A stretch of DNA of 61,279 bases from a virus. Lineage: Duplodnaviria > Caudoviricetes. Within the stretch, counting starts at the first letter, position 1. Every line of letters starts with the position of its first letter. Of the stretch, positions 8,335-31,049 are shown piece by piece. The position numbers and the translations under genes are program-made. The stretch lies in the IMG/VR virus record IMGVR_UViG_3300006925_000018, positions 1 to 61,279 of that record; one strand, 5' to 3'. The notes beneath the pieces were generated by a model. That model made no database searches and was not told the origin of the DNA. It saw only the letters and a list, made by a program, of their open reading frames with translations.

Positions 8335-8339
8335 ACACT

Positions 8340-11166: not shown

Positions 11167-11705
11167 AAATATTTGAAATAATAAACGAGTTAGACGGAAA
11201 GGATGTTGATCTTAAACCAGATACTGGACGTAATTTTTCAAGTGGTGGACAAAGTTCAGAGATAAACCAAAACGACCTAAGAGATATGAAAATTGCATAT
11301 AGAAAAAATCCACAGTTTGTGGCATTAGTTATGCAAGGACTAGCACAACCTCATATTAAAACAGTTGCTCAAGCAGTACAATGGGCACAGAACGAAGTAG
11401 TAGCAGGCAATGACGCTAAACCATCCGATACTAAATTACCAACATCAGGACCTGCTAAACAAAATCCTCGATGGTGGGACGATGCTCAACTTAGTGTTAG
11501 CAAGTCTAAAAATAAAGATTTTGGCAAGAATTATAGTTCAAGCGGCAGTAAACGAGGTAAACTTAGCGATCTTATTCCAGGCATGGATAAGGTAAAAGAC
11601 AAAATTGCTGATTTAAAAAATTATACAAAAAATAAAACAGGTTTTGACATAGACGATGCTGATAGCAGTTCTAGTAGAGCCGCTGATTACTTAAAAGGCA
11701 AATAA
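11163..11705 (+). CDS. Putative internal head protein
   Basis: MKIFEIINE tag. Confidence 0.55.
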   Translation: MKIFEIINELDGKDVDLKPDTGRNFSSGGQSSEINQNDLRDMKIAYRKNPQFVALVMQGLAQPHIKTVAQAVQWAQNEVVAGNDAKPSDTKLPTSGPAKQNPRWWDDAQLSVSKSKNKDFGKNYSSSGSKRGKLSDLIPGMDKVKDKIADLKNYTKNKTGFDIDDADSSSSRAADYLKGK

Positions 11706-11750
11706 GCCACTACATATTACATACTCACCGTATGTAAGATAAGTATTAGC

Positions 11751-12812: not shown

Positions 12813-12885
12813 ACTCCAAAACAATATTGTAAAAACTGATAAATAGTGTAAGCAAGTACATTAATGTCTTGCTATGGAGACACAC

Positions 12886-13290
12886 ATGGCGTTAACAAGA
12901 AGCGGAGCAATGAATAACCAGGAAGTTTTATCTGGTAATATAGAGTTTTATTCATTGTTTACATCATTAGATATTACCAGAACAGGTGATTTTAGTGATA
13001 ACACACAAAAAGACTTTGAGAGTATAGTACAAGTAATAGGATTAAGGGCAATGCCTGTAGTAATGAACAATCCTGTTGCATTAAGTGGAGTAGGTGCATT
13101 AGTATTAGAAGGTTACGGTGCTCCAACACTAACAGGAGCAGGTTGGATTTTTAAATTTGCTTTTGAACGTGAAGGCGTTCATACTATAGATACTCTCAGA
13201 GATGAATTAAATGGGATAGTACTGAACGGTGGTACAATAGATACGAAGGATTCTGTAAATATGGAATTCTCCAAACAAGATTTATTATAA
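12886..13290 (+). CDS. Probable virion protein (start after GGAGA RBS)
   Basis: GATAAATA at 12838-12845; GGAGA then ATG at 12886. Confidence 0.6.
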   Translation: MALTRSGAMNNQEVLSGNIEFYSLFTSLDITRTGDFSDNTQKDFESIVQVIGLRAMPVVMNNPVALSGVGALVLEGYGAPTLTGAGWIFKFAFEREGVHTIDTLRDELNGIVLNGGTIDTKDSVNMEFSKQDLL

Positions 13291-13300
13291 GAGATAAACA

Positions 13301-13549
13301 ATGGCTAGGAAAAAAGTAGAAACTAAAGAAATACCACAACCGGAACAATATATCCAGGAAGGCGGTGTAGAAGCACATATTATTGCAGATATGCTGAGGA
13401 TAGAAAGTATCACTACAGAACTCAGAGAGTTTAAAGAAGATACAAAATCAAGGTTTGATAAATTAGAAGGCTGGATTGTTGCAATAGTAGGTATTACAAT
13501 TACTACATTATTAGCCACTGTAGGAACATTAATAGGAAGTATGTTATGA
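13301..13549 (+). CDS. Small coiled-coil protein with C-terminal transmembrane helix
   Basis: RFDKLE followed by WIVAIVGITITTLLATVGTLI. Confidence 0.75.
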   Translation: MARKKVETKEIPQPEQYIQEGGVEAHIIADMLRIESITTELREFKEDTKSRFDKLEGWIVAIVGITITTLLATVGTLIGSML

Positions 13550-14025
13550 AAATAGTAGAAGTTGCAGGTCCAGATAAATGCTGGCCCGGACATAAGAAAG
13601 TTGGCACTCAGCCAGGAACAGGAAAGAACAAAGGCAAACGTGTAAACAAGTGTAAAAAAATTGAATCTGTCAAGGAAGAAGAGATTACTTTAGAGGATAC
13701 ACAAGACTTCCACGAGGAATTTGGTGTTCTAGGATATAGCGAGTGCGACGAAGACGTATTTGAAGCAGAGTATCAAGGACGTAAAGTTAAACTAAACAAG
13801 CCTATGCAAGGTGACGTTAAAAAGTTTAAAGTATATGTCAAAGATCCAAAGACAGGTAATGTTAAAAAAGTAAACTTTGGACACGGCGGTACAAGTGCTA
13901 AGGGTAAGTCAATGCGTATTAGGAAATCTAATCCTAAAGCAAGAAAAAGTTTTAGAGCAAGACATAATTGTGCTAATCCAGGACCAAAAACAAAAGCACG
14001 TTACTGGTCATGCAGGAAATGGTAG
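13546..14025 (+). CDS. Putative internal head protein with basic modules
   Basis: MKIVEV tag; VFE/A site; basic KKVNFG...ARYWSCRKW module. Confidence 0.65.
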   Translation: MKIVEVAGPDKCWPGHKKVGTQPGTGKNKGKRVNKCKKIESVKEEEITLEDTQDFHEEFGVLGYSECDEDVFEAEYQGRKVKLNKPMQGDVKKFKVYVKDPKTGNVKKVNFGHGGTSAKGKSMRIRKSNPKARKSFRARHNCANPGPKTKARYWSCRKW

Positions 14026-14370
14026 ATGAGAATCAACGAAGTCGACGATACAGAAATATTTGAAGCCAGACTTGTTTGGCGTAAAATGGGTAAAACAGTA
14101 AAACGTGCTGTTCGATGTACTAGTGGTAGACGTAAAGGTAGAGTTGTATCTAAGCCTAGCCAATGTGGTGCACCAATAGACTTCAAAAAACGATTAACAC
14201 TTAAAAAAACAAAAGCAAAATTTGGTGCCAGGATAGCTCGTAAGGCGAGAAGATCTAAAAAATACAATCCTATAAGTAGGAGGGTAGCATCACTTAATAA
14301 ATCAGTTAGGTTCAAGCCTACAAGAAAAACTAAATCAACATCAAACAGATTCCCAAATAGGAAAAAGTAA
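14026..14370 (+). CDS. Highly basic putative DNA-condensing protein
   Basis: Acidic leader MRINEVDDTEIFE, then K/R-rich body with a single Asp. Confidence 0.6.
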   Translation: MRINEVDDTEIFEARLVWRKMGKTVKRAVRCTSGRRKGRVVSKPSQCGAPIDFKKRLTLKKTKAKFGARIARKARRSKKYNPISRRVASLNKSVRFKPTRKTKSTSNRFPNRKK

Positions 14371-17300
14371 ATGAAATTTAACGATGTACAGACTCTTGAG
14401 TCGTTATTAAAAAAATTGAATGAGTACGGGAATACATCAGGCAGTCCATCATATAGTGCTGGCGGAACTAGTTCTACAAAAAGCTCACCTACTACATCGC
14501 AATCATCTACTAGTGTAACAAAGCAATCAACAAGTCCTACAGCAAATGGTACCAAACCACCTGAGCCTAAATTAGTCAAAGTAACAGCAAAAGATCTTGA
14601 CGATGGGTCAGAGTTTAAAGACAATAAAGGAAACGTACAAGGAAAGGTTGTAAGTAAAGTAGGTATGTTGCCAAAACCTGATAGAGTTGTTGTACAAACT
14701 ACTGACAATGAATATCATTTATATGATCCTAAAATGGAAGTAATGGTAGATGAACATATAGGTCATGACATCCTTGATAAAATGACTATTAAGAAAAGCC
14801 ATAAGAAAAACTCATTAAAAAGACGAATTAAAAAACTTACAAGAAAACGTTTAGGTGAAGCACCTCTTTGTGAGATTAACTTTAACAGAAAAGAAATTGT
14901 TACAGACGCATTAGACTCACCTGTTAGATGTGGCTTTGAAGCGGAAACTTCATGGGACGGTATCTCTGGCAGTAGCGGCGAAGATGTTAACGATATGGGC
15001 TGGGACGAAGTATCTGATTCTGTATATGTATCAAGTAGCGACAATGATTATATTATGGAAGGCTTTTCAGAGTATGTAAGAGAAAACTTAGTACCTGATT
15101 ACTACGACGATGTAATGGCAAGGTACATGGAAAATGAACGTGATGAAGATTCATCGTATACACGTTTTATGGAAGAAGGCTCAGACGCACCTACAATAGA
15201 TGCTGTAGAAGAATACAGAGATAATTTTAAACATGAAGATCCTAACGAATATGAAAACCGTGAAGAAGACGGTTGGGAAAAAATAAACTGGATAAGAGAA
15301 TACATTGACGAAGAATACGAAGATCAATACTTAGACTTTATACGAGAATATTTAGACGACGACGGTGAGGTTTATCAAGAAGCATATGAAGAAGCAGAAA
15401 GAGAAACATCAATAGACGAATGGATAGGTAATGAATTTTACAGTATGTCAAATTTCTTAGACGATTATGGTATTGATTATTCAGAACTAAATGGTGAAGG
15501 TGGATTGCATGAGATTGCAGACCTATTATCTGAATGGCAAAAACAAAACAGTAAATTTTCACAGTATCCAGAAGTAGGCGATTATGATAACACTTCAGGT
15601 GATGCAGAAAATTGGGCAGTTGAAACAGATAGTAGTATTGACTCATCCGGACAAGGTGCAGAAATTATTTCCCCAGTCTATGAGACTCCAAGAGAGATGC
15701 TTGAAGAACTAAAAAGTTTTTGTGAATGGTTAGAGGAAAAAGGAGCAGACACAAACAGTTCAACAGGCTTACATGTTACTATGAGCTGGTACGGAGAAAA
15801 TCCTAAGTTCACTCAAGATGAAGACGACGAATTTTGGGGTAGCAAAGGCGGACCAAATAAATTAAAAATGGCATCACTACTAGGTGACACTTATCTATTA
15901 CAAACATTTGGTAGAGAAAACAATTCTTATACAAAACAACAAAGTAAGAATATAAAAAGAAAAGCCAACGATGCACGGAAATTTTCAGGCAAAGGCACAG
16001 AAGGATTTTCAGATATCGAAAGAGAATTAGCAAAAGGTATAGACGGTGGTAAATTTAATAGTATTAACTTCAAGGGTCAGATTGATAGCAAAACAAAAAC
16101 CAACCTCATAGAGTTTAGAATAGGTGGCGGTGATGATTATCATTTAGACATGCCTAAGATTGTTAAAGCAGTTATACGTTATGCAACGGTAATGAAAGCA
16201 GGTTATACTGATGCGTTTAATAAAGACTATGCAAATGCTATACACAGAATAGTTCACGGCGCCGGAAAAATTAGTCGAGCAGATATGAACATTGGCTCAG
16301 ACGTTAACGAGCCACTATTAGATTTGTTTAAGAGTATGATAAGCAAGGATAACTATTTTAATGGTGTTACTGCAATAACTAATGCTTACTTGTCTTTATA
16401 TCAAGTAGGAATAAACGAAGAAGAACCTGAGCCTGATACAAACGCATCTCAACAAGAAGCACAAAAACAATACGTTAAAGGCATGGGATTACTTGCTCTT
16501 GATGTAGGATTAGATAGGCACCGAACAAATATTAATGCTAAATCAATAGGCGTTATTCGTAGAAGTTTTAAAGAATTTGATATATCAGAAGATCAATTTA
16601 CTGATCTTATATTTTCTCGAATAAACCAATACCCAATTCCTACACAAAATGACAGGATAGACCAAAAAGCATCTGTACTTAAAAAAGGTATTGACTCTTT
16701 ATTTAAGAAAGACATGTTATCAATGCCAAAATTTTTAAACATACCAAAAGCAGAAAGAATTGTTAAAGGTACGTGGAATGCAATACACAGCGATGGTTGG
16801 TCTAAAGAAGATCAAGAAGAGTTAATAGACAAATTAATAAATCTAACTACACCAGATGTAGCAGATGAAACTAAAAGAAACAATATAAAATATAGCATCA
16901 TTAATATGATAGAAGATGAAGAGTTTAACAGTTTCTATTCTAACATGACCAGAGGCGGATATAACAGTTCTAATCCTCCAGCACAGCCTGGTGAGATTTA
17001 CTATGAGAACGAATTTAAAGATCTAATGAAGTTCCTCAATAAGTATAACAATTATTCGCAACCAGTTGCACCTCATTTTAACTCAAACATATCATCCAGC
17101 GATACATACTTAGAAAACTACTTAAACTCGTACACAATGAAATTGCGTAAACGTTTCTTACATTTAGAAGAAATCAAAGACGACAACTTCCAGTTATATG
17201 TTGAGTCTGTTAAGAAAATAGGGGAACTATCGAGGACGTTACTTAATGCATGGGGAGACCATGAACAAATAGAATTTGACGGAGTACATAATAGATTAGT

Positions 17301-20300
17301 ATTTACTGTTTACGTTAAAGAAAAACTGATAGAGATTTTTAAAGATATTAAAAGTAATGAAATGTCAAATCCAAATTCTGGAAGTGTTTTAAATCGTTTG
17401 GGAGATCGTATGACAGATGGTATACGAGATGCACTTGGCAGGTATTATAAAGATATCGAAGGCGGAGATCCTGATAATTTAAAAATTATTGGCCAAACTG
17501 GTGATGTTAAAACAGCAGTAAAGCAAAAATTTAAGGCTTTAAAAGATTGGATGCAAGGATTTGATAAAATTGCACAAGAAGTTGGATTTGAAAGCCAAGC
17601 AGATGAGATTGCAGGCAAAAATAATATTCCTGGCAGAGAAGATGACTTTGCGAGAAGTGTACAGGAAAGACCACCTATAACATTAAATATACCTGCACAT
17701 TCTCAGGCATACATGTGGACAGATCTGTACAGAGATTTAACTAATCCAGACTTTACTAAACAGGTTAGAAAATCAAAACAACTAAGAGCTAGATCACAGT
17801 TTACAACTAAGTTGAACAGCGGAAAAGTTTTTGTAATTCCATCGGCACATTTCAGCCAGGCTCTAGATGCATATGAAATACAAAAGTATGAAGAGAATCA
17901 TCGACCATGGAGAGTTAAAGCCGCTCAAAAGGTAATGAAAGAGTTTTATAAAACATACGGAAAAGCATTTAAAGATCTCGTTGATAACCCTGCTGACTAT
18001 GTTAGTATAAACGGACTGAAGGCTGAATTAAAGAAGGAAGGCATAGCAATATCAACTGAAGGTGATTCTAGAGAACCTAATGTAGAACCATTAGTACCTC
18101 ATTCAGAGACGTCACAACCAGGAGTAGGAACGCCTCTGTCTACAACAGCCGCCGCGGCTTGGCATGTAAACAACCCAGAGTTATCTAAAAAAGCAGACGC
18201 ATTAGATAAAAACGCAGACCAACATCGAAATAATACAATATCAACGCCACCAGAAAAAGAGGTTAATTCAGATTATGATAAAGCCAGAGCAGAACATCCA
18301 GGCTTCGATAGAATGATGCAACGTGGTATGCAGAATTACTTAGCACGTGGCGAAGTAAATTACCTAGTAGGATTTTTAAACGATCCATTGAAAGATAATG
18401 TTTTCAAATCGCATGTTTTAAATACTATAGCAAATCGAGGTGATATGGAAAACGGTCCTTTTGCTACTTTCCAAGATGCATTAGCAGTTACTCGTAGACA
18501 AGGTCATGAAAGTGTATTTACTAAATTTAATAAACTGTCATTGCAGGAACAAATAGCAAAGTTAGAAAACGTAGATGCAAATAGAATTAGTCAATTACAT
18601 GGTAAATTTGTTGAAGGAAATTTAAACAGAACTGAACTATCCAAAGACCAATCCAGATTTGATGCTTTTGTTAACAAAATTAATGCAGGAATACCATTTC
18701 AAATGACTGATAAAGCCGGCGGCGGCGAAATTGTATTACACCCAGATATGATTAAGGGTGTAACAGTTGCAAGTGATTTACCTGATCCTATAGACATAGA
18801 TGGCAATAACGTTGCTTGGAACAAATTAGAAAAAACAGCAGAATTTGGTTCTAGGACAGGCGGAGAAAAAGTCTCTAACAAAGGTGAAGTAGCAGAAGGT
18901 ATATTAGGATGTGCCACATTTGCTAGATTGCTTAAACGACCTATTGCTCCTATCACAGACGGTGATATAAAATCAGTTATGAAAAGATTGCCAACAGACG
19001 CACCAGATAAAGGTGGTTGGCATGAGTTAACACTTACTGCTAGAGAAACAGATAATCCTATAGCAGACTTCTTTACACTCACACTTAATCTTAAATCAGA
19101 TACTTATAAAGATTTTATAAACCCTGAGAAATGGTCTCTGATGAATAATATCAGTAACAATGTTGTAGGATATGTAAATGACAACATGGACAAGTACACA
19201 AAACTTTTTGCTAAAAACGGCAAAGTTGATGCTGTAAAAGTAATTGCTGATGGTGTAAGCGGAGAAACAGATACCAAAGTAGATGTATTTTTAACTCACA
19301 GTTTAGACGGCGGCCCAGAAAGAACACTACAACATTATGATATGAGTGTTAAAGTAGGTAGTACAAAACAAATGGGACAAGTAGGCGGCGGAAAAACAGC
19401 ACAAGGTGTATCAACGGAACGTTTCTTTATATTGAAAGAAATGTTTGAAAAATTTGGTGCAGATTTATCTGTAATTGAAAACCAGTTTATGTCTTCAGCA
19501 ACAATAAATGATGCTTATGTTATTGCATACAGTGAAGCGGCAAAACAAATAAACACTCATCTAACAACTGAAGATAAAGAAGTAGATTGGCTTATGCAAT
19601 TCTTGAATACTATTAAGTTCTTTGCCACTCTCAATGACGATAGAGTTAAGTTAGTGCAGTTTGAAGATACTTTAAAAGGTGGCTACTATGTGCTAGACTT
19701 TAAAAAGTTAGACAGAATGATGGATAAAGACAAAGTTGATCTAGAAGCGGTATTTATAGATGATAAAGCTCAGCCAAAAATTACTATTATTAACACAGTA
19801 AATAACAAACCGTTTTTATCTATAAGAAAAAAACAAGCACAAAATGACGGCTACATTAGAAACTACATTGAAAAAGAAAAAGGCTTAGTAGAGTTAATCA
19901 AAGTAAGAGGCTCGGGTATGCGTAAGAAAGTTGAAAGTGTCCAAGAAAGAGCTAGTTACGGTGTTTCTCTTGCAAACAAGGAAAAAATCCCTGCAATGAT
20001 TAAATTAGTAGGTAAACTATTTCGCAAAAAACTTCCAACAGTAGAAGTGCAAAACAAATTAAGACAAGAGTTTAATATTCAAGCCTTCGAAGCAAGGCAT
20101 GTTATTAGCATGTGGAAAGAATTGAATAGTGTTAAGGAAGGTGCAGTACCTAACAACGATACAATCAGAAAGTTAAAAGAAATTTTTGCAAAACCTTTAA
20201 TGTCTGATGATATTAAATCACAAATGGATGCGTATATATGTATTCCAGATCCTGCAATGATTAGAGACTTTAGAGCCGCTAGAGCTCAATACGGCGACAA

Positions 20301-20379
20301 TTTTGACATGAGAAGTATTGTTAGAGGTTATGCAAAAGTAAAATTACACAAAACATTACAAAAGCAATTAAGTAAATGA
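14371..20379 (+). CDS. 2002-aa multidomain protein: amidoligase-like domain + PD-(D/E)xK-like nuclease domain
   Basis: CGFEAE, DSSI, AEIISP, NSSTGLHV, KFNSINF, IEFR; NKGEVAEG...KVDV...SVK. Confidence 0.75.
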   Translation: MKFNDVQTLESLLKKLNEYGNTSGSPSYSAGGTSSTKSSPTTSQSSTSVTKQSTSPTANGTKPPEPKLVKVTAKDLDDGSEFKDNKGNVQGKVVSKVGMLPKPDRVVVQTTDNEYHLYDPKMEVMVDEHIGHDILDKMTIKKSHKKNSLKRRIKKLTRKRLGEAPLCEINFNRKEIVTDALDSPVRCGFEAETSWDGISGSSGEDVNDMGWDEVSDSVYVSSSDNDYIMEGFSEYVRENLVPDYYDDVMARYMENERDEDSSYTRFMEEGSDAPTIDAVEEYRDNFKHEDPNEYENREEDGWEKINWIREYIDEEYEDQYLDFIREYLDDDGEVYQEAYEEAERETSIDEWIGNEFYSMSNFLDDYGIDYSELNGEGGLHEIADLLSEWQKQNSKFSQYPEVGDYDNTSGDAENWAVETDSSIDSSGQGAEIISPVYETPREMLEELKSFCEWLEEKGADTNSSTGLHVTMSWYGENPKFTQDEDDEFWGSKGGPNKLKMASLLGDTYLLQTFGRENNSYTKQQSKNIKRKANDARKFSGKGTEGFSDIERELAKGIDGGKFNSINFKGQIDSKTKTNLIEFRIGGGDDYHLDMPKIVKAVIRYATVMKAGYTDAFNKDYANAIHRIVHGAGKISRADMNIGSDVNEPLLDLFKSMISKDNYFNGVTAITNAYLSLYQVGINEEEPEPDTNASQQEAQKQYVKGMGLLALDVGLDRHRTNINAKSIGVIRRSFKEFDISEDQFTDLIFSRINQYPIPTQNDRIDQKASVLKKGIDSLFKKDMLSMPKFLNIPKAERIVKGTWNAIHSDGWSKEDQEELIDKLINLTTPDVADETKRNNIKYSIINMIEDEEFNSFYSNMTRGGYNSSNPPAQPGEIYYENEFKDLMKFLNKYNNYSQPVAPHFNSNISSSDTYLENYLNSYTMKLRKRFLHLEEIKDDNFQLYVESVKKIGELSRTLLNAWGDHEQIEFDGVHNRLVFTVYVKEKLIEIFKDIKSNEMSNPNSGSVLNRLGDRMTDGIRDALGRYYKDIEGGDPDNLKIIGQTGDVKTAVKQKFKALKDWMQGFDKIAQEVGFESQADEIAGKNNIPGREDDFARSVQERPPITLNIPAHSQAYMWTDLYRDLTNPDFTKQVRKSKQLRARSQFTTKLNSGKVFVIPSAHFSQALDAYEIQKYEENHRPWRVKAAQKVMKEFYKTYGKAFKDLVDNPADYVSINGLKAELKKEGIAISTEGDSREPNVEPLVPHSETSQPGVGTPLSTTAAAAWHVNNPELSKKADALDKNADQHRNNTISTPPEKEVNSDYDKARAEHPGFDRMMQRGMQNYLARGEVNYLVGFLNDPLKDNVFKSHVLNTIANRGDMENGPFATFQDALAVTRRQGHESVFTKFNKLSLQEQIAKLENVDANRISQLHGKFVEGNLNRTELSKDQSRFDAFVNKINAGIPFQMTDKAGGGEIVLHPDMIKGVTVASDLPDPIDIDGNNVAWNKLEKTAEFGSRTGGEKVSNKGEVAEGILGCATFARLLKRPIAPITDGDIKSVMKRLPTDAPDKGGWHELTLTARETDNPIADFFTLTLNLKSDTYKDFINPEKWSLMNNISNNVVGYVNDNMDKYTKLFAKNGKVDAVKVIADGVSGETDTKVDVFLTHSLDGGPERTLQHYDMSVKVGSTKQMGQVGGGKTAQGVSTERFFILKEMFEKFGADLSVIENQFMSSATINDAYVIAYSEAAKQINTHLTTEDKEVDWLMQFLNTIKFFATLNDDRVKLVQFEDTLKGGYYVLDFKKLDRMMDKDKVDLEAVFIDDKAQPKITIINTVNNKPFLSIRKKQAQNDGYIRNYIEKEKGLVELIKVRGSGMRKKVESVQERASYGVSLANKEKIPAMIKLVGKLFRKKLPTVEVQNKLRQEFNIQAFEARHVISMWKELNSVKEGAVPNNDTIRKLKEIFAKPLMSDDIKSQMDAYICIPDPAMIRDFRAARAQYGDNFDMRSIVRGYAKVKLHKTLQKQLSK

Positions 20380-20489
20380 ACGAAGAAATAAAAGTAAGAG
20401 AACCGCAACTGCCTGTAGAAGGCGAATACACACTTTGTAATAGAGGTGAAGTTGCTGTATATAGAAATGGGAAATGGGTAAGACCGTGA
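20376..20489 (+). CDS. 37-aa small protein not in the ORF track
   Basis: MNEEIKVREPQLPVEGEYTLCNRGEVAVYRNGKWVRP; ATGA and GTGA overlaps with both neighbours. Confidence 0.7.
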   Translation: MNEEIKVREPQLPVEGEYTLCNRGEVAVYRNGKWVRP

Positions 20490-23338
20490 AGCAATCAATA
20501 TTTGAAGCAATGGTAAGTACATTACCACACAATGTTCAAGGAACACCTGTTCCTAGAGCCGAGATGCCTCAATTAAAAGTGCCAGACTTAGAAAATTATA
20601 ATACTGTACGAATAGATTTTCCAATAGATAGAATTAAACCAGTACAAACAGAAAGAGTGCCAGGACTAGCAAGAAAGGTTGCTCGAGATTTTGATGGTAA
20701 AGACAAACCGTTTATATTAGACAAAGACTACAAACTTGTTAACGGGCATCACAGATATGATGCCGCTAGATTGCTAGGTAAAGAAGTTGTAGATGTAGTT
20801 ATAATCAGAGATAAAACCTTAGATCAACTAATGGGACTGCATAAAGATACAACAAGCAACACACCAACTATTCAAACTGAAGACGACATGTCTGACTTTC
20901 ACCGCAAACTAAAAATCGCACTAGAGAAAAGAAACCTTTTCGCTGACGGCGGAGGCGGCGGTGGCGGTGGAGGCGGTGGCGGCGGAGCCGGTGGCGGTGC
21001 AGGAGCCGGTGGTGGTACTGGAGCAGGAGCAGGAGCAAGTGCCGGAGCAGGAGCAAGTGCCGGAGGAGACTCAGGAGGCGACAGCGGTTCATCAGGTAGC
21101 AGTGATTCAGGACCAAGTACAGACAGTGGTGATAGTTCGCCAGCACCTGCAAGAGGTTATATGTACTTTGGTTCAATGCCAGCATACAGTAAAAGCAAAA
21201 AGAAGAAAAAGAAAAAGAAAAAAACTAGTACTAAATTTGGCAAAGGTGCATCGGTTTATGAAGCACAAGAAAATACTATATATGCAAAATGTGAATTAGA
21301 ACATATTGTAGATGGTGTCGATAAAGGAAACTTTTTATTCAAGCAAGAACCTGGTAAGCCTGTACTAGTTGTAGGAACAGTTACAGGACTAACACCAGGT
21401 AAGCATGGTTTTCATATACATGAATTTGGAGACCTAAGCAATGGCTGTGAAAGTGCAGGCGGACATTATAATCCAGACGGTGTAGATCACGGAGACTTAG
21501 ATAGCGGACATGCAGGTGACTTAGGTAACATAGTTGCTGATGAAAACGGTATTGCAAAAATAGGAATAGTTTTAAAACGTGTAGACTTACACGGAGATAG
21601 AAACATTGTAGGCAGAGCAATAGTTGTTCATGCTGATGAAGATGATTTAGGCAAGGGCGGAGATGAGGAAAGTGCAAAAACAGGTAATGCAGGTGATAGA
21701 TTAGGTTGTGGTGTTATTAGATTAGCAACATTAAATGAAACCATAGAAGCCGCACAAGATATGAAAGCATTAATGAAAGGCATAGATTCAGACTTAGCAC
21801 AACGTAAAAAAGACCTCAAAAAGAAAATTAAGGCAAGTGTATACGAAGCACCAATAATTAGACCACAAGATTCATATGATCCAAACGCCAACGATGCATA
21901 TAATTCTGCAACAAATAGACAACCTCCTAAATATGATTATGATCCTGAGGTAGATTATAGACCAGGTAAAAGTTTAGGTAAAATTCCTAACATACAATCT
22001 GAAACAGAAGTAGTACAGATGCCTAATAGAGATTTGTATTTGTTTTATTCTAATACTATGCCTAAATCTACTACACCTGAACAAAAGACAATGTGGCAAA
22101 AATTTGTAACAGCAATGTTACACAATCCAAAAGCAAATCAAACTGGTCCTACCAAAGAAAAAAATGTAATAGGTTTTTTAAAATTAAAACCTTTTGAAGA
22201 TGGTTATAGAGTTGCTGGTGTTGGAATGGATCCTGAAATACGAGGACAAGGCAAAGCAATTAAATTATACATGGCTTTTAGTGCCTGGAAAAGTGTTCCT
22301 ATATATTCTGACTTTACACAAACGCCTAGTGCTAAAACAATGTGGAATAGTATAATAGGCCGTTATCCTAAAAGAGTTGTTGCATATGATCAACAAAGTA
22401 AACAAGATATACCGTTATCTAAAGCAGGTGAGATGTATCAAGACGCACCACCTGACTATAAAAAATTAACTCAATTCGACGTAGCGAAAGCTCATAGTGG
22501 CACTAAACTGTTTAAATTATTACCAGAAGGTGTAACAAAGGGCAACTTTGGTGGACTTATATATCCTCGACTACCACATGAAGAAGTGGTAGATGCCATT
22601 AGTGAGTGGGAGTACGGTAACACACCTATTGAACTTAGTAATGGATATGTTATAAATGCCAGAGAAGAAGGCTATAACGAAGACGACAATGCTTGGGTAT
22701 TATTAGACCCACAGGGTAAAATAATTGATGATGGTGAAGGTTCTATTGAAGATGTAATGCAGGACTTTACACCAATAGCAATAGAAGAAAACTTTGCTGA
22801 CGGTAAAAAGAAAGGCAAAAGTCGTCCAGGTAGAGTAAAACGTTCAGGAGCAAGTTGCAATGGCTCAGTAACTGATCTGCGTAAACGTGCAAAAAATAGC
22901 AGTGGTGAGAAAGCAAAAATGTATCACTGGTGTGCTAACATGAAGTCTGGTAAAAAGAAAACTAAAGAAAGTTACTATAGTAGAATGGCAGTTGATAAGA
23001 TAGAAATGAGACCAAAAGACTTTAATGACAAGTACGGTACAGCAGACGCCTATACTGGCATAGCTCAGCCTCAACAGAAACTAAAACCATCTAAGTGGGA
23101 AGTTGGTAACCCAACAGGACCTCATAGCGAAAATGTTTTTATAAACATTCGCACTAATCAAGTATCAGGAGCCACTGCAATAAAACAAATAACTGCTCAA
23201 TACACACATGACCAAATGGTTAAACCTCTAGAGCAGGGCGGTTTAGGTGCAAGGCAGACAAAGAATACAAGTGATAACAAATACTATATGCCTTATGTGT
23301 TATTTGATAAACATGTAAAGTCCGGAAAGATAAAATAG
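20486..23338 (+). CDS. Multidomain protein: ParB/Srx-like, Gly/Ser linker, Cu/Zn SOD, GNAT acetyltransferase, small modules (likely GTG start 20486)
   Basis: LVNGHHRY; HGFHIHEFGD, GGHYNP, HAGDLGN, TGNAGDRLGCGVI; MDPEIRGQGKA. Confidence 0.88.
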   Translation: MKQSIFEAMVSTLPHNVQGTPVPRAEMPQLKVPDLENYNTVRIDFPIDRIKPVQTERVPGLARKVARDFDGKDKPFILDKDYKLVNGHHRYDAARLLGKEVVDVVIIRDKTLDQLMGLHKDTTSNTPTIQTEDDMSDFHRKLKIALEKRNLFADGGGGGGGGGGGGGAGGGAGAGGGTGAGAGASAGAGASAGGDSGGDSGSSGSSDSGPSTDSGDSSPAPARGYMYFGSMPAYSKSKKKKKKKKKTSTKFGKGASVYEAQENTIYAKCELEHIVDGVDKGNFLFKQEPGKPVLVVGTVTGLTPGKHGFHIHEFGDLSNGCESAGGHYNPDGVDHGDLDSGHAGDLGNIVADENGIAKIGIVLKRVDLHGDRNIVGRAIVVHADEDDLGKGGDEESAKTGNAGDRLGCGVIRLATLNETIEAAQDMKALMKGIDSDLAQRKKDLKKKIKASVYEAPIIRPQDSYDPNANDAYNSATNRQPPKYDYDPEVDYRPGKSLGKIPNIQSETEVVQMPNRDLYLFYSNTMPKSTTPEQKTMWQKFVTAMLHNPKANQTGPTKEKNVIGFLKLKPFEDGYRVAGVGMDPEIRGQGKAIKLYMAFSAWKSVPIYSDFTQTPSAKTMWNSIIGRYPKRVVAYDQQSKQDIPLSKAGEMYQDAPPDYKKLTQFDVAKAHSGTKLFKLLPEGVTKGNFGGLIYPRLPHEEVVDAISEWEYGNTPIELSNGYVINAREEGYNEDDNAWVLLDPQGKIIDDGEGSIEDVMQDFTPIAIEENFADGKKKGKSRPGRVKRSGASCNGSVTDLRKRAKNSSGEKAKMYHWCANMKSGKKKTKESYYSRMAVDKIEMRPKDFNDKYGTADAYTGIAQPQQKLKPSKWEVGNPTGPHSENVFINIRTNQVSGATAIKQITAQYTHDQMVKPLEQGGLGARQTKNTSDNKYYMPYVLFDKHVKSGKIK
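20945..21140 (+). repeat. GC-rich low-complexity coding tract (poly-Gly, GAGA, GDS repeats)
   Basis: GGC/GGT/GGA triplets and duplicated GGAGCAGGAGCAAGTGCC. Confidence 0.85.
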
Positions 23339-23350
23339 ATAAATACAATT

Positions 23351-23677
23351 ATGCTTATAAACGACATTATAACAGAAACAACTTCCGGTGGTATTGCCAT
23401 TGTTGCTTCACCAATGGGCAAAATGCAAAAGAGACCTAACCCAAGTGTTTTTGCAAAAAGCAAAAAGAGAGTTTCAGAAGATACAGACCCAAAAGCAGAT
23501 CCAGAAATTGTTGCCAAGTTTGCTAGGGTAAGTGATAAAGACAGATCTTACTATATTATGAAGTGGGCTGAAGAAAAAGGAATTAATAGCGACGATGCTA
23601 TGTGCCTAGCAGGTTATGTAAGAGATGGATATATAGGCGCAGGTGCTTGGAACTGGGCATATCGACCAAAAGGTTAA
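23351..23677 (+). CDS. Putative internal head protein
   Basis: GATAAATA 5 nt upstream; MLINDIITE/T tag; VSE/D site. Confidence 0.6.
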   Translation: MLINDIITETTSGGIAIVASPMGKMQKRPNPSVFAKSKKRVSEDTDPKADPEIVAKFARVSDKDRSYYIMKWAEEKGINSDDAMCLAGYVRDGYIGAGAWNWAYRPKG

Positions 23678-23679
23678 TT

Positions 23680-23904
23680 ATGAAAGCAGTTAAATGCAAA
23701 GACGGCCACCTCAGTTTCATTAGTTCTAATGATGCGAGACTCTTCAACAAAATAGACTTTGACAGATTTTTAGATATAAATACATTAGACGAAGGAACTT
23801 TACATCAATGCGAAGAGATGTATAAACAAAACGTCATCCGTAAAATAACTACAAAGGAAGGAAAAGTTGGCTACAAAATCTACCCACAAAAAACAGAAGT
23901 ATAA
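23680..23904 (+). CDS. Hypothetical protein (likely start 23680)
   Basis: ATG 2 nt after upstream stop; in frame with track ORF 23602. Confidence 0.7.
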   Translation: MKAVKCKDGHLSFISSNDARLFNKIDFDRFLDINTLDEGTLHQCEEMYKQNVIRKITTKEGKVGYKIYPQKTEV

Positions 23905-24325
23905 CAAAAGACAGAAGCAAGATCTAGCAGTTAAGTTAGATAAACTTGCTCAAAATGTGTCTAAACGTGGTGCCTATGTGGTTACTAGGAATGCTACTAA
24001 CGATTTCTTCGTTATAGTAGAGGCTTTAAATAAAAAGGTGGTATTGACACATATACTTCAAAAAAACACAGCACAAGGGCTTTGTGTACGTCTAAACAGC
24101 CGAAATAAGCCCAACTCACCTTATGAACCAGTGACAGATATGCAACTAACTAGAACACAAAAGTTGTTAAATAGATATGCTGATCTATTCACCGAATCAA
24201 TATTTCACAAATACACAATCAAAACAACAAAAAAGAATTTTACAAGAGACGTGGCATTTATAAGATTACACGAAACAGTTCTCAAACTCAAAGGCATTGC
24301 AGAAGAGCTAAGACACCAGTTATAA
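23867..24325 (+). CDS. Hypothetical basic protein
   Basis: 152-aa ORF in operon; TTG start after GGAAGGA. Confidence 0.7.
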   Translation: MATKSTHKKQKYNKRQKQDLAVKLDKLAQNVSKRGAYVVTRNATNDFFVIVEALNKKVVLTHILQKNTAQGLCVRLNSRNKPNSPYEPVTDMQLTRTQKLLNRYADLFTESIFHKYTIKTTKKNFTRDVAFIRLHETVLKLKGIAEELRHQL

Positions 24326-24392
24326 AACTTTTAATAAATTTTGCAATTATGATAAATAAGTGTAATAACTAACTTATAACTAGGAAATCACT

Positions 24393-25682
24393 ATGTTTTT
24401 GAATGAATTTAATCAAACATCAATTAGTAAGGTAGCATCGCTTAACAAAATGCTGTCTGAAGAATTTGGTATAAAAATCAATCCAGGAACAGTCAATCTC
24501 ACAAAGTTAATGAAGATTAACGAGCAGGCCAAAGCGGCTTTGTATAAAATTAGAGGTAGTAAGAAGAAATTTCAATTAGAGCCAGAGTATGCAAAATACT
24601 TAGGTTTAAAAGATATTTCAGAGACGATGATTGTTGAAGGGTACTACGAATCCAGCCCAGGCTACCAAGCACTAGAGGCTAAAATCTATGAAAGAGTAAT
24701 GGAACTTTGTAATTCAGGGTACACGGCAGAAGAAGCCAGAAGCCAATGTATGAACGAAGTTAGACAAGACCCGTCTCATTGTTATGAAGATGCATGTACA
24801 GAGACTATGGTTATGTCTGCAATTGGCAAATTCGAAGAGTCATGTGGTAGTAAGCATGAATCAATTGAAGAAGAGTTAGGCCTTCCAGAAACTGATATGA
24901 GTCCAAGACTAGTAAGAGAACTTGCTACTGAAATTGGAATAGATCTTGCAACAATGGAAGATTACAATGCTATCGAAGAAAAACTTAAAACTTTTGCTGA
25001 AGTTAGTGGCAAAAGCAGAGACTCAGTTGTTGGTTTCCTAAACGGTCTCGAAGAAGATTCAGTAGTTAGTGGTATCCAAATGTTTGGCAGAAAGATTGAA
25101 GAGCAAAATAAATTTACTGGTGCTAGAAAAGATGCTATTGCACAAGGCAAAGATTCTTTTGAAGTAGATGGTAAAACATATAAAGTAACTGGTGATACTT
25201 CCGATGAAGAGGAAGCAGTAGAGGAAAGTACAATGTTTGATTCAATTATAGATGAAATGCTTAACGAAGAAGTTGGCGAAAAAGAAGCAGAAGTTGTTAT
25301 GGCTGTTAGAGCATTAGCAGATGATATTCAAGACCAAGTAGAAAGAATTGGTAGAATGGTTAATGTAGATATTCCAGCAATAGCAGATTCTATTAGAACT
25401 GAAATGGGAGCCGATACAGCATTATCATTCTCAGATGGTTCATCACAATTACTTACAGCACACTTAGAAGCAGTTAAGGCTGTTAAGTCTGCATTTGATC
25501 AACAAATTAGCGGATTAACAGGCGGCGAAATGGTTGGCGGTCTTGGTGATACGGCAGATTTAGGTGCCGAACTAAACAGCGATCCTTCAATGGATAGTTT
25601 AGGAATGGAAGAGCCAGTAGCAGACAACGTTCCAGCAATGGCAGGCCCAGAAGAAGAGCCACTCGGAAGAGCAGAGGTTTAA
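24393..25682 (+). CDS. Acidic helical protein, possible prohead core/scaffold
   Basis: GATAAATA at 24351-24358; MFLNEF tag; very Glu-rich. Confidence 0.55.
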   Translation: MFLNEFNQTSISKVASLNKMLSEEFGIKINPGTVNLTKLMKINEQAKAALYKIRGSKKKFQLEPEYAKYLGLKDISETMIVEGYYESSPGYQALEAKIYERVMELCNSGYTAEEARSQCMNEVRQDPSHCYEDACTETMVMSAIGKFEESCGSKHESIEEELGLPETDMSPRLVRELATEIGIDLATMEDYNAIEEKLKTFAEVSGKSRDSVVGFLNGLEEDSVVSGIQMFGRKIEEQNKFTGARKDAIAQGKDSFEVDGKTYKVTGDTSDEEEAVEESTMFDSIIDEMLNEEVGEKEAEVVMAVRALADDIQDQVERIGRMVNVDIPAIADSIRTEMGADTALSFSDGSSQLLTAHLEAVKAVKSAFDQQISGLTGGEMVGGLGDTADLGAELNSDPSMDSLGMEEPVADNVPAMAGPEEEPLGRAEV

Positions 25683-25685
25683 TTA

Positions 25686-26033
25686 ATGCTCATTTCAGAA
25701 GTAGTCAGTTCTGGAATGGCAGGTCCAGAAGATGAATTGGTAGTTGCCATTGAGGACCTACTAAGTAGATATATGGCTGATGGTAATGACGAGGCTGATA
25801 TCCCTACAGATGAATTCAAAAGTAATTTAGAGGCTGATATTAATAGGCCAATCGACATGGGCACTTTAATTAGTGTATTAGGGCAAAGCGGTTTTGCTAG
25901 TAGTGTAGATAAAACAACTATTAGAGCAAAAGGCGACCTAAGTAAGGATATAGACACAGACCCAGAAAAAACAGTTGATGTTGGTAAAATGGCTGGTGAT
26001 CAAGCCATGAAAGATATTAAGGCAGATCTATAA
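25686..26033 (+). CDS. Putative internal head protein
   Basis: MLISEV tag; acidic. Confidence 0.55.
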   Translation: MLISEVVSSGMAGPEDELVVAIEDLLSRYMADGNDEADIPTDEFKSNLEADINRPIDMGTLISVLGQSGFASSVDKTTIRAKGDLSKDIDTDPEKTVDVGKMAGDQAMKDIKADL

Positions 26034-26353
26034 TGGCAAGTATATTTTCTAATGCGGCAACGGCCCGTAAAGATACTAGGAACAATTCAGTTATTCATGC
26101 TGAAGTGCGTAGCATTGAAACTGCTGTACTAGGCAACATTGATGCCGGAGTATTATACGCAAACGTATCTACAGGCACAACAATGACAGATAGTAATGCG
26201 TATTACAAAGCATACTATGGTGTTACTACAGATGTAACTAAAAAAGATCAAGTAGACTATGTCTGTAAGTATTTTAAAGACTTAGGATATGGTGTCAAAA
26301 TAGCACAAAACTTAACAACCACAGATACAATTACCTGGAATATTAGTTGGTAA
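26033..26353 (+). CDS. Probable virion protein
   Basis: TAATG-coupled; YFKDLGY...WNISW. Confidence 0.6.
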   Translation: MASIFSNAATARKDTRNNSVIHAEVRSIETAVLGNIDAGVLYANVSTGTTMTDSNAYYKAYYGVTTDVTKKDQVDYVCKYFKDLGYGVKIAQNLTTTDTITWNISW

Positions 26354-27869: not shown

Positions 27870-30800
27870 GTGGCAGATAATGACAAAACAATAGTATCGA
27901 GAATACAACACCGCAGAGGTCTTAAGCAAGATCTTCCTCAGCCATTACGTCCTGGGGAAATAGGATTGGCTACAGACAGTAGACAACTCTATATTGGCGG
28001 CGATCCAACTAATCCAGCAACAGCAGATTATCATAGTGTAAGTTACTACGAAAATACTTTAAGTGCAAAAGACCATGTGGCTAGTATTGCCAATAATAAT
28101 ATTGTTGCATTTAATGTTCCTAGTGTACGATTTGTTGAAGGCGAATTTAACGGCACTAGCAAAGTTAAAAGTTGGCAACCAACTGATGCAAGAAGCATAT
28201 TATCAGGCTCATCTGCATCAGCATTTTCAGATTCAACATACCCTGTTTTCTCTCCAATATCAACAGCATCAATTTCAAGTACATTAAGTGCAACCAAAGC
28301 CGCTGGTAGTTTTGAGTTAGCAGTATCGATAGTTTCTGGACAAGATACTACAGGTAACATTAGAGTAAATGATGAAATCATTATATCTGGTTATGCAGGT
28401 ACAAGACCAAAAGTTAATACAGTAAGCAGACATGTTTCTGGTGGATACTATGTAGTTACTATTGACCAATCTATAACAGAACTTGCAAGTGGTACAGCAT
28501 TAGAATTTGTACCTAAGCATCAAAAGAATATTTTTACAGATAGAGCATTCCATTCACAAGACGTTACTGTAGTTAAAAATTCTATATCTCAAACAGGCGA
28601 AGCGTCTAGTACAACATTTACACCGTCAGCAAACGTTGACTATGCAATAGATGGTAGTAATATTACAAGTGTTGGTTCACATAGTTTAACAATGAGAACA
28701 GCACCAACAGTTTATGATTCAATTGCATTAACATATTATTCAAATGCTAATGTTATAGCCGCAATAGAAGGTGTAGAATCAGGCTCACACAAAGGCAATA
28801 TATCAGCATCAGTACCAATGCCAAGTTTTTATCAAAATACAACACTTTGGGATTCTGGATTATTACCTTCATACAAGCATTTCAAGAAAGAGAATATACG
28901 AATAAGTAAATCAACAGGGGTTGGTTATGTTGGTATGGATTTAGTTCATATAAGTGCAACAGCCGATGGTGCAAACATAACAGCAACAACAGGCCTAACT
29001 TTAGGTAATTTATACATTGCTAGAGAAGATGAAGCACTAGGCTTAACTTCGTTAGTATCTTCAAACAATGGAGAAAGTTATGTAGTAACATTTGCTTCCT
29101 CTAATGACGCAGGCAAATTCCAAACACAAGCAACAGCAGGTGTTTACAAATACAGTGAAATAATGTTTATAGGTAAAACAGGCTTCACTGACGAATACTT
29201 ACACAGGTCAAAATTTGCTGTAACAGGCACAGGCGGATCTGCAGTAACAATTTCAATGCCAGCATTACCGTATTCAATCTCACGTTCAGCAAGTGCTAAC
29301 GTTGAAGTAGACCCTGTATTCCCAGGTAACGGCTTTACAAATACGTCACCTACAACATGTGTTATTAGAATTTACGACGATACATTAAAAGCAGACGAAG
29401 TTAAACCAAATGATTACGTTAGAATTATTGACAACTTAGGTAATGCTTCCGCTTGTGAGTTAGACGATACATTATTTAAAGTAGTATCAACTAAAACAGG
29501 AAGCCATTTTAATATTCGAGTTAACACTAATGATATTTTAGCAGGTAACAGTAATGTTACATTTACTGCAAATATTGCCGCTGGTGGCATCAAGTATGTT
29601 AATCACGGTAGTTCGGCGGCAGATGTCGATGATACTATCCAGGTTATAGCAGAAGCACATGGTATTAATCCAGGTGGAACGTCAAATGTACAAATTAACG
29701 GTCCTGCTGTATTTACAACAGGAACTGCATATGATATTAAGACTTCAGCAAGTGATATTACAAAAAATACATTCTTTGTAGAAAACTATCCAGTACTAAT
29801 GAAAGAATCAGCATTACTACTTAATGAGTCGGGTGCAGGTGGATTCATTGCCGATTCGGCACAAGGTGTAATGCCACAGTCGTTACTAAGTTTTAGTAGC
29901 ACAGGTTTTGATGCTGTTCCAGTATTAGCAATTGACTTATCTGGCAACACTACAGTTGAAAGTGCTATTACCACAGTTAATAAAAATTTAGTAGAAATAG
30001 CAAGTGCAAATGTGCAGATATATCCGCAAATGAATTTTATACCACAGGATGATAATGCCAAAAATGCTGTGTATATAAGTCAAAGACCAGCATACTCATC
30101 AGTAGCAACAGGTGGCTTAGAGTTTACACTTTTTGAAGATAAAATAACACCAACATTATCTGTACTAGGTTTAGAAGATAAACTATATGACAGAGTAAAC
30201 AATACTGTAAAAGCAAAATTTGAACAATGGTTAAACAGTACAGTAAACAGCAGAGATGTAAATTTATTTAGTAATGTATTCCCAGGAGATAATGACGGTG
30301 CAACACCACCAGTAAGTACAACATACGCAACATTAAATCCTAAGAGCACAAACATGGCTACACCATACAGTTTGGCAATTGATAACACATTCAATGAAAT
30401 CACATTTGGTAGTAGAGAAGAAGCAGGCATATTTAATAATATTGTCAACAGAATATATGGTACAAGTTTATATGACAAACTACTAGATTCTAATAAAGGA
30501 TCAAGAGGTTTAATTAATCTTAAAAATAACATTGAGATTTCTACAAGAGAAGCCGCAACGTTTGGTAACAAAGTAACAAGTTTTAACAGTATGGAACAAA
30601 CTATATTACTACCAGGTGATAACGGTATTTCAGGCACAGGCGCAGTACAACAAGCAACATTAAATGCGGCTAAGTTAGTTGCTTCGTTTGATGCAAGTAG
30701 TACATACAATGTATTTAAAGTAGATTACAGTATAGCAGAAAGTGTAGGTAGTTCTGCTAACAAATACATTAGAACAGGTGTTTGGACTATTGCAGGTAGA

Positions 30801-31049
30801 ACCGACTTTACAGATCAAGCAAATGCTGTTATCTTTAATGATTCATTCTCTAGTCATTCGGAAATCACAACTCATACAAACAGTTTGGTAGAACCTAAGT
30901 TTAGAGCATTAATGAATAGTTCTGGACTTATATCTGTGTATCTAGTTAATGATCAAAAGGAAATAGAGACGGACACAAATATAACGCATAATTTAGGTGT
31001 CCAGTTAAGAGTTAAATATATACAAGACCGTTGGTCCTCATCTAGTTAA
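27870..31049 (+). CDS. Large tail/baseplate structural protein with Mtd-N-like N-terminus
   Basis: RIQHRRG...LRPGEIGLATDSRQLYIG; S/T/N-rich; GATAAATA at 27838-27845; AGGAG RBS, GTG start. Confidence 0.75.
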   Translation: MADNDKTIVSRIQHRRGLKQDLPQPLRPGEIGLATDSRQLYIGGDPTNPATADYHSVSYYENTLSAKDHVASIANNNIVAFNVPSVRFVEGEFNGTSKVKSWQPTDARSILSGSSASAFSDSTYPVFSPISTASISSTLSATKAAGSFELAVSIVSGQDTTGNIRVNDEIIISGYAGTRPKVNTVSRHVSGGYYVVTIDQSITELASGTALEFVPKHQKNIFTDRAFHSQDVTVVKNSISQTGEASSTTFTPSANVDYAIDGSNITSVGSHSLTMRTAPTVYDSIALTYYSNANVIAAIEGVESGSHKGNISASVPMPSFYQNTTLWDSGLLPSYKHFKKENIRISKSTGVGYVGMDLVHISATADGANITATTGLTLGNLYIAREDEALGLTSLVSSNNGESYVVTFASSNDAGKFQTQATAGVYKYSEIMFIGKTGFTDEYLHRSKFAVTGTGGSAVTISMPALPYSISRSASANVEVDPVFPGNGFTNTSPTTCVIRIYDDTLKADEVKPNDYVRIIDNLGNASACELDDTLFKVVSTKTGSHFNIRVNTNDILAGNSNVTFTANIAAGGIKYVNHGSSAADVDDTIQVIAEAHGINPGGTSNVQINGPAVFTTGTAYDIKTSASDITKNTFFVENYPVLMKESALLLNESGAGGFIADSAQGVMPQSLLSFSSTGFDAVPVLAIDLSGNTTVESAITTVNKNLVEIASANVQIYPQMNFIPQDDNAKNAVYISQRPAYSSVATGGLEFTLFEDKITPTLSVLGLEDKLYDRVNNTVKAKFEQWLNSTVNSRDVNLFSNVFPGDNDGATPPVSTTYATLNPKSTNMATPYSLAIDNTFNEITFGSREEAGIFNNIVNRIYGTSLYDKLLDSNKGSRGLINLKNNIEISTREAATFGNKVTSFNSMEQTILLPGDNGISGTGAVQQATLNAAKLVASFDASSTYNVFKVDYSIAESVGSSANKYIRTGVWTIAGRTDFTDQANAVIFNDSFSSHSEITTHTNSLVEPKFRALMNSSGLISVYLVNDQKEIETDTNITHNLGVQLRVKYIQDRWSSSS

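Follow-up and report, generated by a model that had tools for sequence, protein, structure and literature searches.

A modular polyvalent protein with a Cu/Zn superoxide dismutase domain in a marine jumbo phage: a candidate capsid-targeted cargo

The window analysed here is the whole of IMG/VR virus record IMGVR_UViG_3300006925_000018 (61,279 bp), which stems from a marine jumbo myovirus and is judged 18% complete, giving a genome of roughly 340 kb. An open reading frame (ORF) on its plus strand (20474..23338) encodes a protein of 954 amino acids (aa), here called the query, which carries ParB-like, Cu/Zn superoxide dismutase (SOD) and GNAT-like domains among other modules. The product is read as a capsid-targeted polyvalent cargo protein that would be cut after glutamate (Glu) in the prohead, a reading to which we assign a probability of roughly 0.65.

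The internal proteins and Alt of phage T4 offer a first comparison (statements on published systems, here and below, follow excerpts of the cited papers). IPI to IPIII and Alt, like the query, begin with a short leader that ends in hydrophobic-x-Glu, the corresponding protease being of the S77 family with the motif L/I-X-E (PMC9026906, PMC3012670); T4 gp21 cuts after the Glu of this motif, and ten N-terminal residues are enough to target T4 internal proteins into the head (PMC9026906). The internal proteins also resemble the query in that they are variable cargo, partly basic, unrelated to head structure and encoded at a hypervariable locus (PMC9026906, PMC3012670). The query has no sequence similarity to them, and its cleavage is something that we infer.

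The polyvalent proteins of Iyer et al. (2017; PMC5512222), like the query, hold several unrelated domains per polypeptide, stand in a context of virion genes and are proposed to be delivered with the DNA; the authors liken them to polyproteins. ParB-like, GNAT and Pol-beta nucleotidyltransferase domains occur both in these proteins and among relatives of the query (PMC5512222). The defining features are found here as well, disparate ParB/sulfiredoxin (Srx), SOD and GNAT folds being joined in a virus record and collinearity with Pseudomonas phage PA5oct supplying the context of virion genes. Release of polyvalent proteins is ascribed to embedded peptidases such as a zincin-like MPTase, frequent though not obligatory (PMC5512222), whereas the query has no such domain and its joints fit a prohead protease acting in trans. 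The word 'superoxide' has 0 occurrences in that paper and in a survey of jumbo phages (PMC7824862).

Inner-body and ejection proteins are a further parallel: in the jumbo phages phiKZ, 201phi2-1 and SPN3US, a protease related to gp21 processes many proteins of the head interior after Glu, in some cases at several sites (PMC10052503, PMC9026906). The motif there is S/A-X-E or A-X-E, in contrast to the hydrophobic-x-E of the query, the phage lineage is a different one, and the multiple cuts mainly remove long propeptides instead of releasing a series of enzymes (PMC10052503, PMC9026906). As for the SOD, Mimiviridae and chloroviruses are large DNA viruses with active, eukaryote-like, virion-associated Cu/Zn SODs, thought to remove reactive oxygen early in infection (PMC10583209). 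These giant-virus SODs are separate proteins of viruses of eukaryotes, whereas the query carries its SOD as one cassette of a phage polyprotein. Word searches of open-access text found no account of SOD-bearing polyvalent proteins or of prohead-protease-delimited enzyme polyproteins in phages, which does not prove their absence.

Module borders and Glu sites

The ORF (954 aa plus stop), which an initial annotation had placed at 20486-23338, is real and modular, and is supported by collinear and shuffled homologs from independent metagenome contigs. Its product opens with a leader (aa 1-11; 20474..20506), a candidate capsid-targeting propeptide with like leaders in relatives, ending in I-F-E11 before Ala12. 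There follow a ParB/sulfiredoxin-fold domain (aa 12-136; 20507..20881) and a low-complexity cassette (aa 152-263; 20927..21262) that consists of a Gly/Ala/Ser-rich run, then a Lys run, and ends in V-Y-E263; a Gly/Lys-rich cassette ending in [IV]-Y-E is found again in relatives (P0015, P0125, P0126, L037, L038, L045). The eukaryote-like Cu/Zn SOD module (aa 264-422; 21263..21739) ends in L-N-E422. Between LNE422 and VYE458 lies a helical-looking peptide cassette of 36 aa (aa 423-458; 21740..21847), found in relatives downstream of ParB, SOD, GNAT or Lys-rich modules. The GNAT-fold module (aa 459-685; 21848..22528), ending in L-P-E685, is followed by an 87-aa module (aa 686-772; 22529..22789) that ends in I-E-E772 and is a separate block in P0011, P0024, P0025 and P0026. 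A basic module (aa 773-832; 22790..22969) starts N-F-A-D-G-K and closes with a Lys run and T-K-E832, and the C-terminal 122 aa (aa 833-954; 22970..23335) have only partial matches, in P0023, P0046, P0047 and P0064. All of these features are on the plus strand.

The three named domains are real, the SOD as a family member and the ParB-like and GNAT domains at fold level. Pfam gave no credible match for aa 686-772, 773-830 or 831-954, and an ESM Atlas search with aa 831-954 gave no usable match, so that in these searches no database name was obtained for the low-complexity cassette, the 36-aa peptide, the 87-aa module, the basic module or the 122-aa tail. No peptidase family was matched by Pfam in the query or its segments, nor in 61 relatives at E<=0.001. 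Against cultured phages, tblastn with the whole protein returned only an Acinetobacter phage sodC covering 11% of the query, and tblastn with the basic module returned no match, the low-complexity filter possibly having masked the query.

The query has eight [ILV]-x-E sites, whose Glu residues are 11, 263, 317, 422, 458, 685, 711 and 772. Six of them stand at borders (IFE11/A, VYE263/A, LNE422/T, VYE458/A, LPE685/G and IEE772/N) and had all been named by the initial annotation, the one before the SOD lying at nt 21260-21262 rather than near 21254 as first given. The remaining two fall within modules (HIHE317, at the copper site of the SOD, and AISE711); with 7.9 sites expected along the entire protein, this would be a depletion (Poisson 0.015), but the test was post hoc and is weak. 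Six of the eight module borders of the query carry [ILV]-x-E, and the signal is carried only by the placement of the sites.

Borders were set independently of the sites, as the ends of BLAST alignments among 93 non-redundant family members, an end being counted only where both proteins run on for at least 25 aa. In the query, compared with the 92 other members, the main breakpoint clusters (n>=9) are at aa 27, 134, 260, 422, 458, 685, 769 and 832; five of the eight have a site no more than 3 aa away (263, 422, 458, 685, 772). The borders at aa 27, at about 134-151 (which reads IALE151) and at 832 (which reads TKE832) have no [ILV]-x-E. Family-wide the motif is enriched at breakpoints: the 93 proteins have 792 breakpoint clusters, not independent since they are shared among relatives, of which 55, 162 and 284 are within 0, 2 and 5 aa of [ILV]-x-E, compared with 12.6, 59.3 and 120.7 expected. 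When thirteen motif classes were tested as a control, only hydrophobic-x-Glu was enriched at breakpoints (2.7-3.3×; controls 0.8-1.3×), with values of 2.73× for [ILV]xE and 3.25× for [FYWM]xE, as against 1.21× for [ILV]xD, 0.77× for [ILV]xK and 0.95× for [AGS]xE.

The same preference is found residue by residue at the joints of relatives. Before the basic module, anchored on N-[FY]-x-D-G-K, the P1 residue is Glu in 75 of 75 distinct upstream contexts; in collapsed contexts P3 is Ile, Leu or Val in 37 of 55 (background 18%; binomial 1.7e-15) and hydrophobic in 47 of 55, with P2 (7/55) and P4 (10/55) at background. [ILV]-x-E stands before the SOD in 29 of 29 contexts, most of them with one common upstream segment and four independent, and within 12 aa after it in 45 of 45, compared with 13.5% of random 12-mers. 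All 17 contexts upstream of the 36-aa peptide have it too, as do all 11 upstream of the GNAT module; the modules that precede these two junctions are ParB, SOD, GNAT or Lys-rich ones. The residue that follows the junction Glu is mostly A, S, T, G or N. In these alignments, a hydrophobic P3 and a Glu at P1 are characteristic of the junctions before the basic module, the 36-aa peptide and the GNAT module and around the SOD, whatever the neighbouring module.

Most relatives have the order SOD-ParB-...-basic, the reverse of the query; others lack the SOD or have a second ParB, a 5'-nucleotidase or a Pol-beta nucleotidyltransferase. The slot between the same neighbours is also present in G002 (L002) and G003 (L038), whose flanking genes are 30-82% identical to those of the window (12874-33870 compared), and it holds leader-ParB-Gly/Lys-peptide-ParB-basic (451 aa) in one contig and leader-CxC-SOD-ParB-basic-extension (606 aa) in the other. 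Judged from these comparisons, the polyprotein slot is a hypervariable cargo locus, conserved in position and varying in its cassettes.

Cassettes also occur as genes of their own, which open with a leader of about 10 aa closed by x-x-E and terminate at the position of the polyprotein Glu. In stand-alone P0124 (234 aa), ten leader residues, the last two being T-E, precede a GNAT-like module that runs from A-P to L-L-P, where the protein ends; P0123 and P0141 likewise terminate at this L-L-P, after which the polyprotein has its Glu, and among the matches listed 14 of 87 GNAT-like representatives end 0-5 aa past L-L-P or its variant L-L-S. Stand-alone SOD genes of 181-192 aa stop 4-10 aa past C-G-V-I, often on Glu. 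Domain shuffling at x-x-E sites in homologs, a check set beforehand, was thus borne out by the varied orders and sets, the differences within the same slot and the stand-alone ends at Glu sites. On the evidence of homologous sequences, the cassettes are autonomous and are exchanged between phages at hydrophobic-x-Glu joints.

The basic module is the most widespread, being present at no fewer than 46 IMG/VR loci and at the end of the protein in 93 of 138 family occurrences; the small ORFs L033 and L034 consist of a leader and this module. As a tiny gene behind a leader of 9-10 aa (L033, L034, L046, L020), this Lys/Arg-rich module of about 60 aa resembles a small basic T4 internal protein. The basic Cys-containing module of the initial annotation thus exists and is common, but across the family its two Cys are not conserved; the Cys pair was rejected as a defining feature because relatives have Gln or Leu at the second Cys.

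The SOD, ParB-like and GNAT-like domains

The SOD domain that had been proposed is firmly established: Pfam Sod_Cu (PF00080) matches aa 284-415 over profile positions 2-133 of 133 (E 4.7e-44; 150.5 bits, gathering cut-off 28.9). A sequence search of PDB gave SOD chains as the only matches, with a full-length alignment of the module to human SOD1 chains, and placed the phage SOD nearer to SOD1 of eukaryotes than to SodC of bacteria. Human SOD1 is matched at all of its His-x-His, Cys, His, His, His, Asp, His, Arg and Cys positions, which we take to be the copper and zinc ligands, the active-site Arg and the disulfide Cys pair. From its sequence, the identity of aa 284-415 as a Cu/Zn SOD is certain, and the module is intact.

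Most SOD-bearing relatives (P0003, P0028, P0072 and others, and the stand-alone SODs P0294-P0325) have before the SOD a segment reading C-P-R-T-K, 3-5 residues, C-x-C and [ILV]-x-E. C-x-C beside a Cu/Zn SOD resembles the motif of the copper chaperone, and in these relatives the segment might supply copper to the adjacent SOD; the query SOD does not have it. Three proteins from isopod and other eukaryote assemblies (P0002, P0006, P0009) contain Cu/Zn SOD domains in tandem, 7-10 per protein, that share about 50% identity with the phage SOD. They were left out of the family analyses as tandem-SOD proteins of eukaryote assemblies, one of which is labelled contamination.

The ParB-like domain holds at fold level, on the strength of structural models, and not at the level of Pfam, where ParB_N stays below the gathering cut-off on the query segment (12.9 bits against 26.3) and is reached at E<=0.001 by two of 61 family members. 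PHROG ParB families match aa 12-136 weakly (E 7e-5 to 8e-3). An AlphaFold2 (AF2) model built from 48 sequences has a predicted local distance difference test score (pLDDT) of 84.2 and a predicted template modelling score (pTM) of 0.77, and in Foldseek it has 6 matches at E<=0.001, the best being 5k5a (E 2.5e-4; TM-score 0.42 on the query). The matches listed are ParB-N, PadC, Noc, KorB, sulfiredoxin, a serine kinase, SbnI and the uncharacterised 2hwj and 1vk1, and from the model aa 12-136 are assigned the ParB/Srx fold. Within the nearly invariant N-G-H-H-R stretch (aa 90-94), G91 is invariant across 61 sequences and H92, H93 and R94 are conserved in at least 90%; R94 may be the catalytic Arg of the ParB/Srx family motif. 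Sulfiredoxin, which is among the fold matches and would be an attractive redox link to the SOD, was not adopted as an identity, because at the position of the sulfiredoxin catalytic Cys the query has a His.

The GNAT region of the initial annotation likewise stands by fold and by its relatives, but in the query itself Acetyltransf_1 (13.7 bits) is below the Pfam cut-off of 20.7. A scan of 1.84 billion representatives found 90 relatives of aa 459-685, and 22 of the 70 aligned match Acetyltransf_1 at E<=0.01 (best 1.2e-9). The AF2 model (pLDDT 80.5) has acetyltransferases throughout among the Foldseek matches listed, the best with E 2.6e-3 and 0 with E<=0.001. In VIA, it aligns with the acetyl-CoA-binding domain of ICL2 at Z 8.9 (root-mean-square deviation 2.6, 115 aligned), barely higher than the 7-8 that is the typical best for unmatched models, and with GCN5 at Z 8.0. 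Modelled structure and transitive matches together assign aa 459-685 to the GNAT fold. The acetyl-CoA pyrophosphate-binding motif of GNAT enzymes is Q/R-x-x-G-x-G/A, and the query reads R-G-Q-G-K-A at aa 590-595, inside the region aligned to GNAT profiles.

Leaders, gene neighbourhood and prohead protease

The query leader has a close counterpart in P0126, there before a GNAT-like module, and the short leaders of relatives are alike whichever module comes next. A strict leader pattern is present in 16 and a relaxed one in 30 of 35 unique N-termini of the family, compared with 0.16% and 0.54% at internal positions. Within the window, M-[KR]-hydrophobic-x-[ED]-hydrophobic opens 8 of 76 ORFs (0.086 expected), and 9 of 11 loose leader matches are within 7.5-26 kb, between DnaB and exonuclease. 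ORFs with the leader pattern are found at 7245-26353 (+), and also at 50874-53063 (-) and 53301-54134 (-). The pattern may tag about a dozen head-cargo genes.

The window is collinear over 3.3-35 kb with gp262-gp240 of PA5oct, in the order structural protein, primase, DnaB (50% identical), an array of small proteins, exonuclease and ribonucleotide reductase, and the PA5oct proteins of the collinear array start with a like leader pattern. The query ORF is located between homologs of gp250 and gp247, both annotated as detected in PA5oct virions by electrospray ionization tandem mass spectrometry (ESI-MS/MS), the detection being taken from the annotation notes of the record. That mass spectrometry was done on CsCl-purified phage and found 93 gene products, some of them enzymes (PMC7318152).

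One relative, encoded in a complete genome of 191 kb, has the terminase and portal genes about 5 kb downstream. In this T4-like genome (G001; L025 4718-14481), ORFs beside terminase and portal have leaders of 9-12 aa ending in L-[IL]-L-E before Ala or Gly, and one of these ORFs carries GNAT, Pol-beta nucleotidyltransferase and the basic module. As far as the sequences indicate, the same grammar of leader and junction holds in this second phage group, one with a confirmed S77 protease.

DnaB proteins related to that of the window were found at 313 places in IMG/VR. Pfam S77 (T4 gp21-type) is present in two of five large contigs with a DnaB 77-78% identical to that of the window, about 62-65 kb from DnaB. 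This lineage S77 was confirmed by PHROGs (E 2.8e-58), and next to it are genes for a portal (E 9e-118) and a major head protein (E 2.7e-99), together with acidic and coiled-coil ORFs that resemble a scaffold; within its N-terminal 41 aa the head protein contains three [ILV]-x-E sites. The ORF following the protease opens with a 10-aa stretch ending in L-L-E. S77 is also present in both PA5oct and Sinorhizobium phage Phosso (2/2). The junction motif fits the lineage protease, because the published motif of the S77 family is L/I-X-E.

Two other genes near the query ORF were noted. The gene upstream (14371-20379, +), of 2002 aa, starts with the leader pattern, has a weak match to Amidoligase_2 (aa 380-472, E 5e-6) and one to phrog_3560 (aa 1501-1843), and is itself variable, with piecewise identities of 32-68% among relatives; possibly this is another polyvalent cargo protein. 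An ORF of 1059 aa (27870-31049, +) matches Mtd_N (the N-terminal domain of the major tropism determinant) at aa 12-43, and its N-terminus alone matches gp243, a structural protein of PA5oct; a role in receptor binding or as a fibre is possible.

Interpretation and significance

If the query is capsid-targeted cargo, its leader would direct the entire polypeptide to the core of the assembling prohead, in the manner of the 10-residue capsid targeting sequence of T4 internal proteins. The S77 protease would then cut after Glu 11, 263, 422, 458, 685 and 772, and perhaps after 151 and 832, and the folded pieces would stay in the head with the DNA and be ejected into the host at infection. There, the SOD would remove superoxide, the basic module would bind DNA, and the ParB-like and GNAT domains would have nucleic acids or proteins of host or phage as their targets. 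A broader proposal, which we consider evenly balanced, is that, in one lineage of marine jumbo phages that are abundant, the T4-type prohead protease serves as a polyprotein processor: a leader is followed by cassettes that are each closed by hydrophobic-x-Glu and swapped at these sites, one signal loads a changeable set of enzymes including an SOD that enters with the DNA, and about a dozen neighbouring genes are tagged in the same way.

The original proposal of a string of effectors released by the prohead protease is supported by the modularity, the junction motif, the synteny and the protease of the lineage, but both the packaging and the cutting of the product are what we infer from them, and this and the following points weigh against cleaved cargo. 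T4 cargo (internal proteins and Alt) consists of single units trimmed at their ends (PMC9026906), whereas the query would have up to seven cassettes with internal sites. Its own leader misses the strict leader pattern and fits only loosely. The number of [ILV]-x-E sites in the query is that of chance (8, compared with 7.9±2.5 in 2000 shuffles), and the family-wide excess over shuffles (1.30×) is unspecific, [ILV]xD being also at 1.24×; overall excess was accordingly rejected as a signal. After the basic module, Glu follows soon past the Lys run in 31 of 31 continuing relatives, but P3 is K, T, N, S or A. The site at L-P-E685 may be poorly exposed, because the AF2 model places its P3 Leu in the final strand of the GNAT fold. 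No S77 gene is present in the 61-kb window, which is 18% of the genome, and of 34 fragments retrieved with the basic module, 5 have S77 (2/5 and 3/29). These positives are apparently from another, T4-like group (about 165-220 kb), the TerL of which is 77% identical to that of Flavobacterium phage immuto. Lastly, the ESI-MS/MS notes of PA5oct also mark enzymes such as ribonucleotide reductase, and the label is no proof of a structural role.

The main rival, which we hold to be unlikely but worth serious attention, is that a packaged polyvalent protein stays uncut, like the N4 virion RNA polymerase, the joints being points of exchange or a common linker. Module shuffling requires only recombination at conserved joints, delivery of uncut polyvalent proteins is documented (PMC5512222), the query has no embedded peptidase domain, and a hydrophobic P3 is absent at two of its borders (A-L-E151 and T-K-E832), which also counts against cleavage. 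Joints kept by recombination would, however, conserve nucleotides and not the combination of a hydrophobic P3, a free P2 and a Glu at P1; hydrophobic-x-Glu is the sole enriched class at breakpoints among the 13 tested, and a linker does not predict that stand-alone genes have the same site behind their leader.

Cutting into modules by some other protease, viral or host, is improbable. A candidate is encoded in the window, the subtilase-like ORF of 519 aa at 37015-38574 (-), which matches Peptidase_S8 (E 1.4e-21) and phrog_3677 ('protease') and is a possible alternative processing enzyme; another would be a ClpP-like head protease of the kind that PA5oct encodes as well, PA5oct having a second annotated head maturation protease, gp212. 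The junction motif nevertheless matches the specificity of S77, the propeptide region of the lineage major head protein has its own [ILV]-x-E sites near the N-terminus, and we know of no Glu specificity for S8 or ClpP-type enzymes. Slightly less probable still is a cytoplasmic multi-enzyme fusion that acts during infection, an auxiliary metabolic gene among replication genes, since, although the ORF lies between DnaB/primase and exonuclease/ribonucleotide reductase genes and phage SOD genes are usually filed as auxiliary (the category of phrog_1975), in PA5oct the array flanked by these replication genes is made up of proteins detected in virions, leaders are common to the family, to these proteins and to a small ORF in the head-gene module, and the relative in the 191-kb genome is near terminase and portal.

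Should capsid-targeted and cleaved cargo be confirmed, the cassette logic would be a template for packaging foreign proteins into phage heads, which has already been done with the T4 signal (PMC3012670). The virion cargo of uncultured jumbo phages, common in marine metagenomes, would become predictable from sequence alone. T4 capsid targeting and polyvalent proteins would merge into one rule: several enzymes packaged as a single chain are set free by the prohead protease. An SOD would be among the proteins that a bacteriophage brings into its host, pointing to superoxide as a problem at entry.

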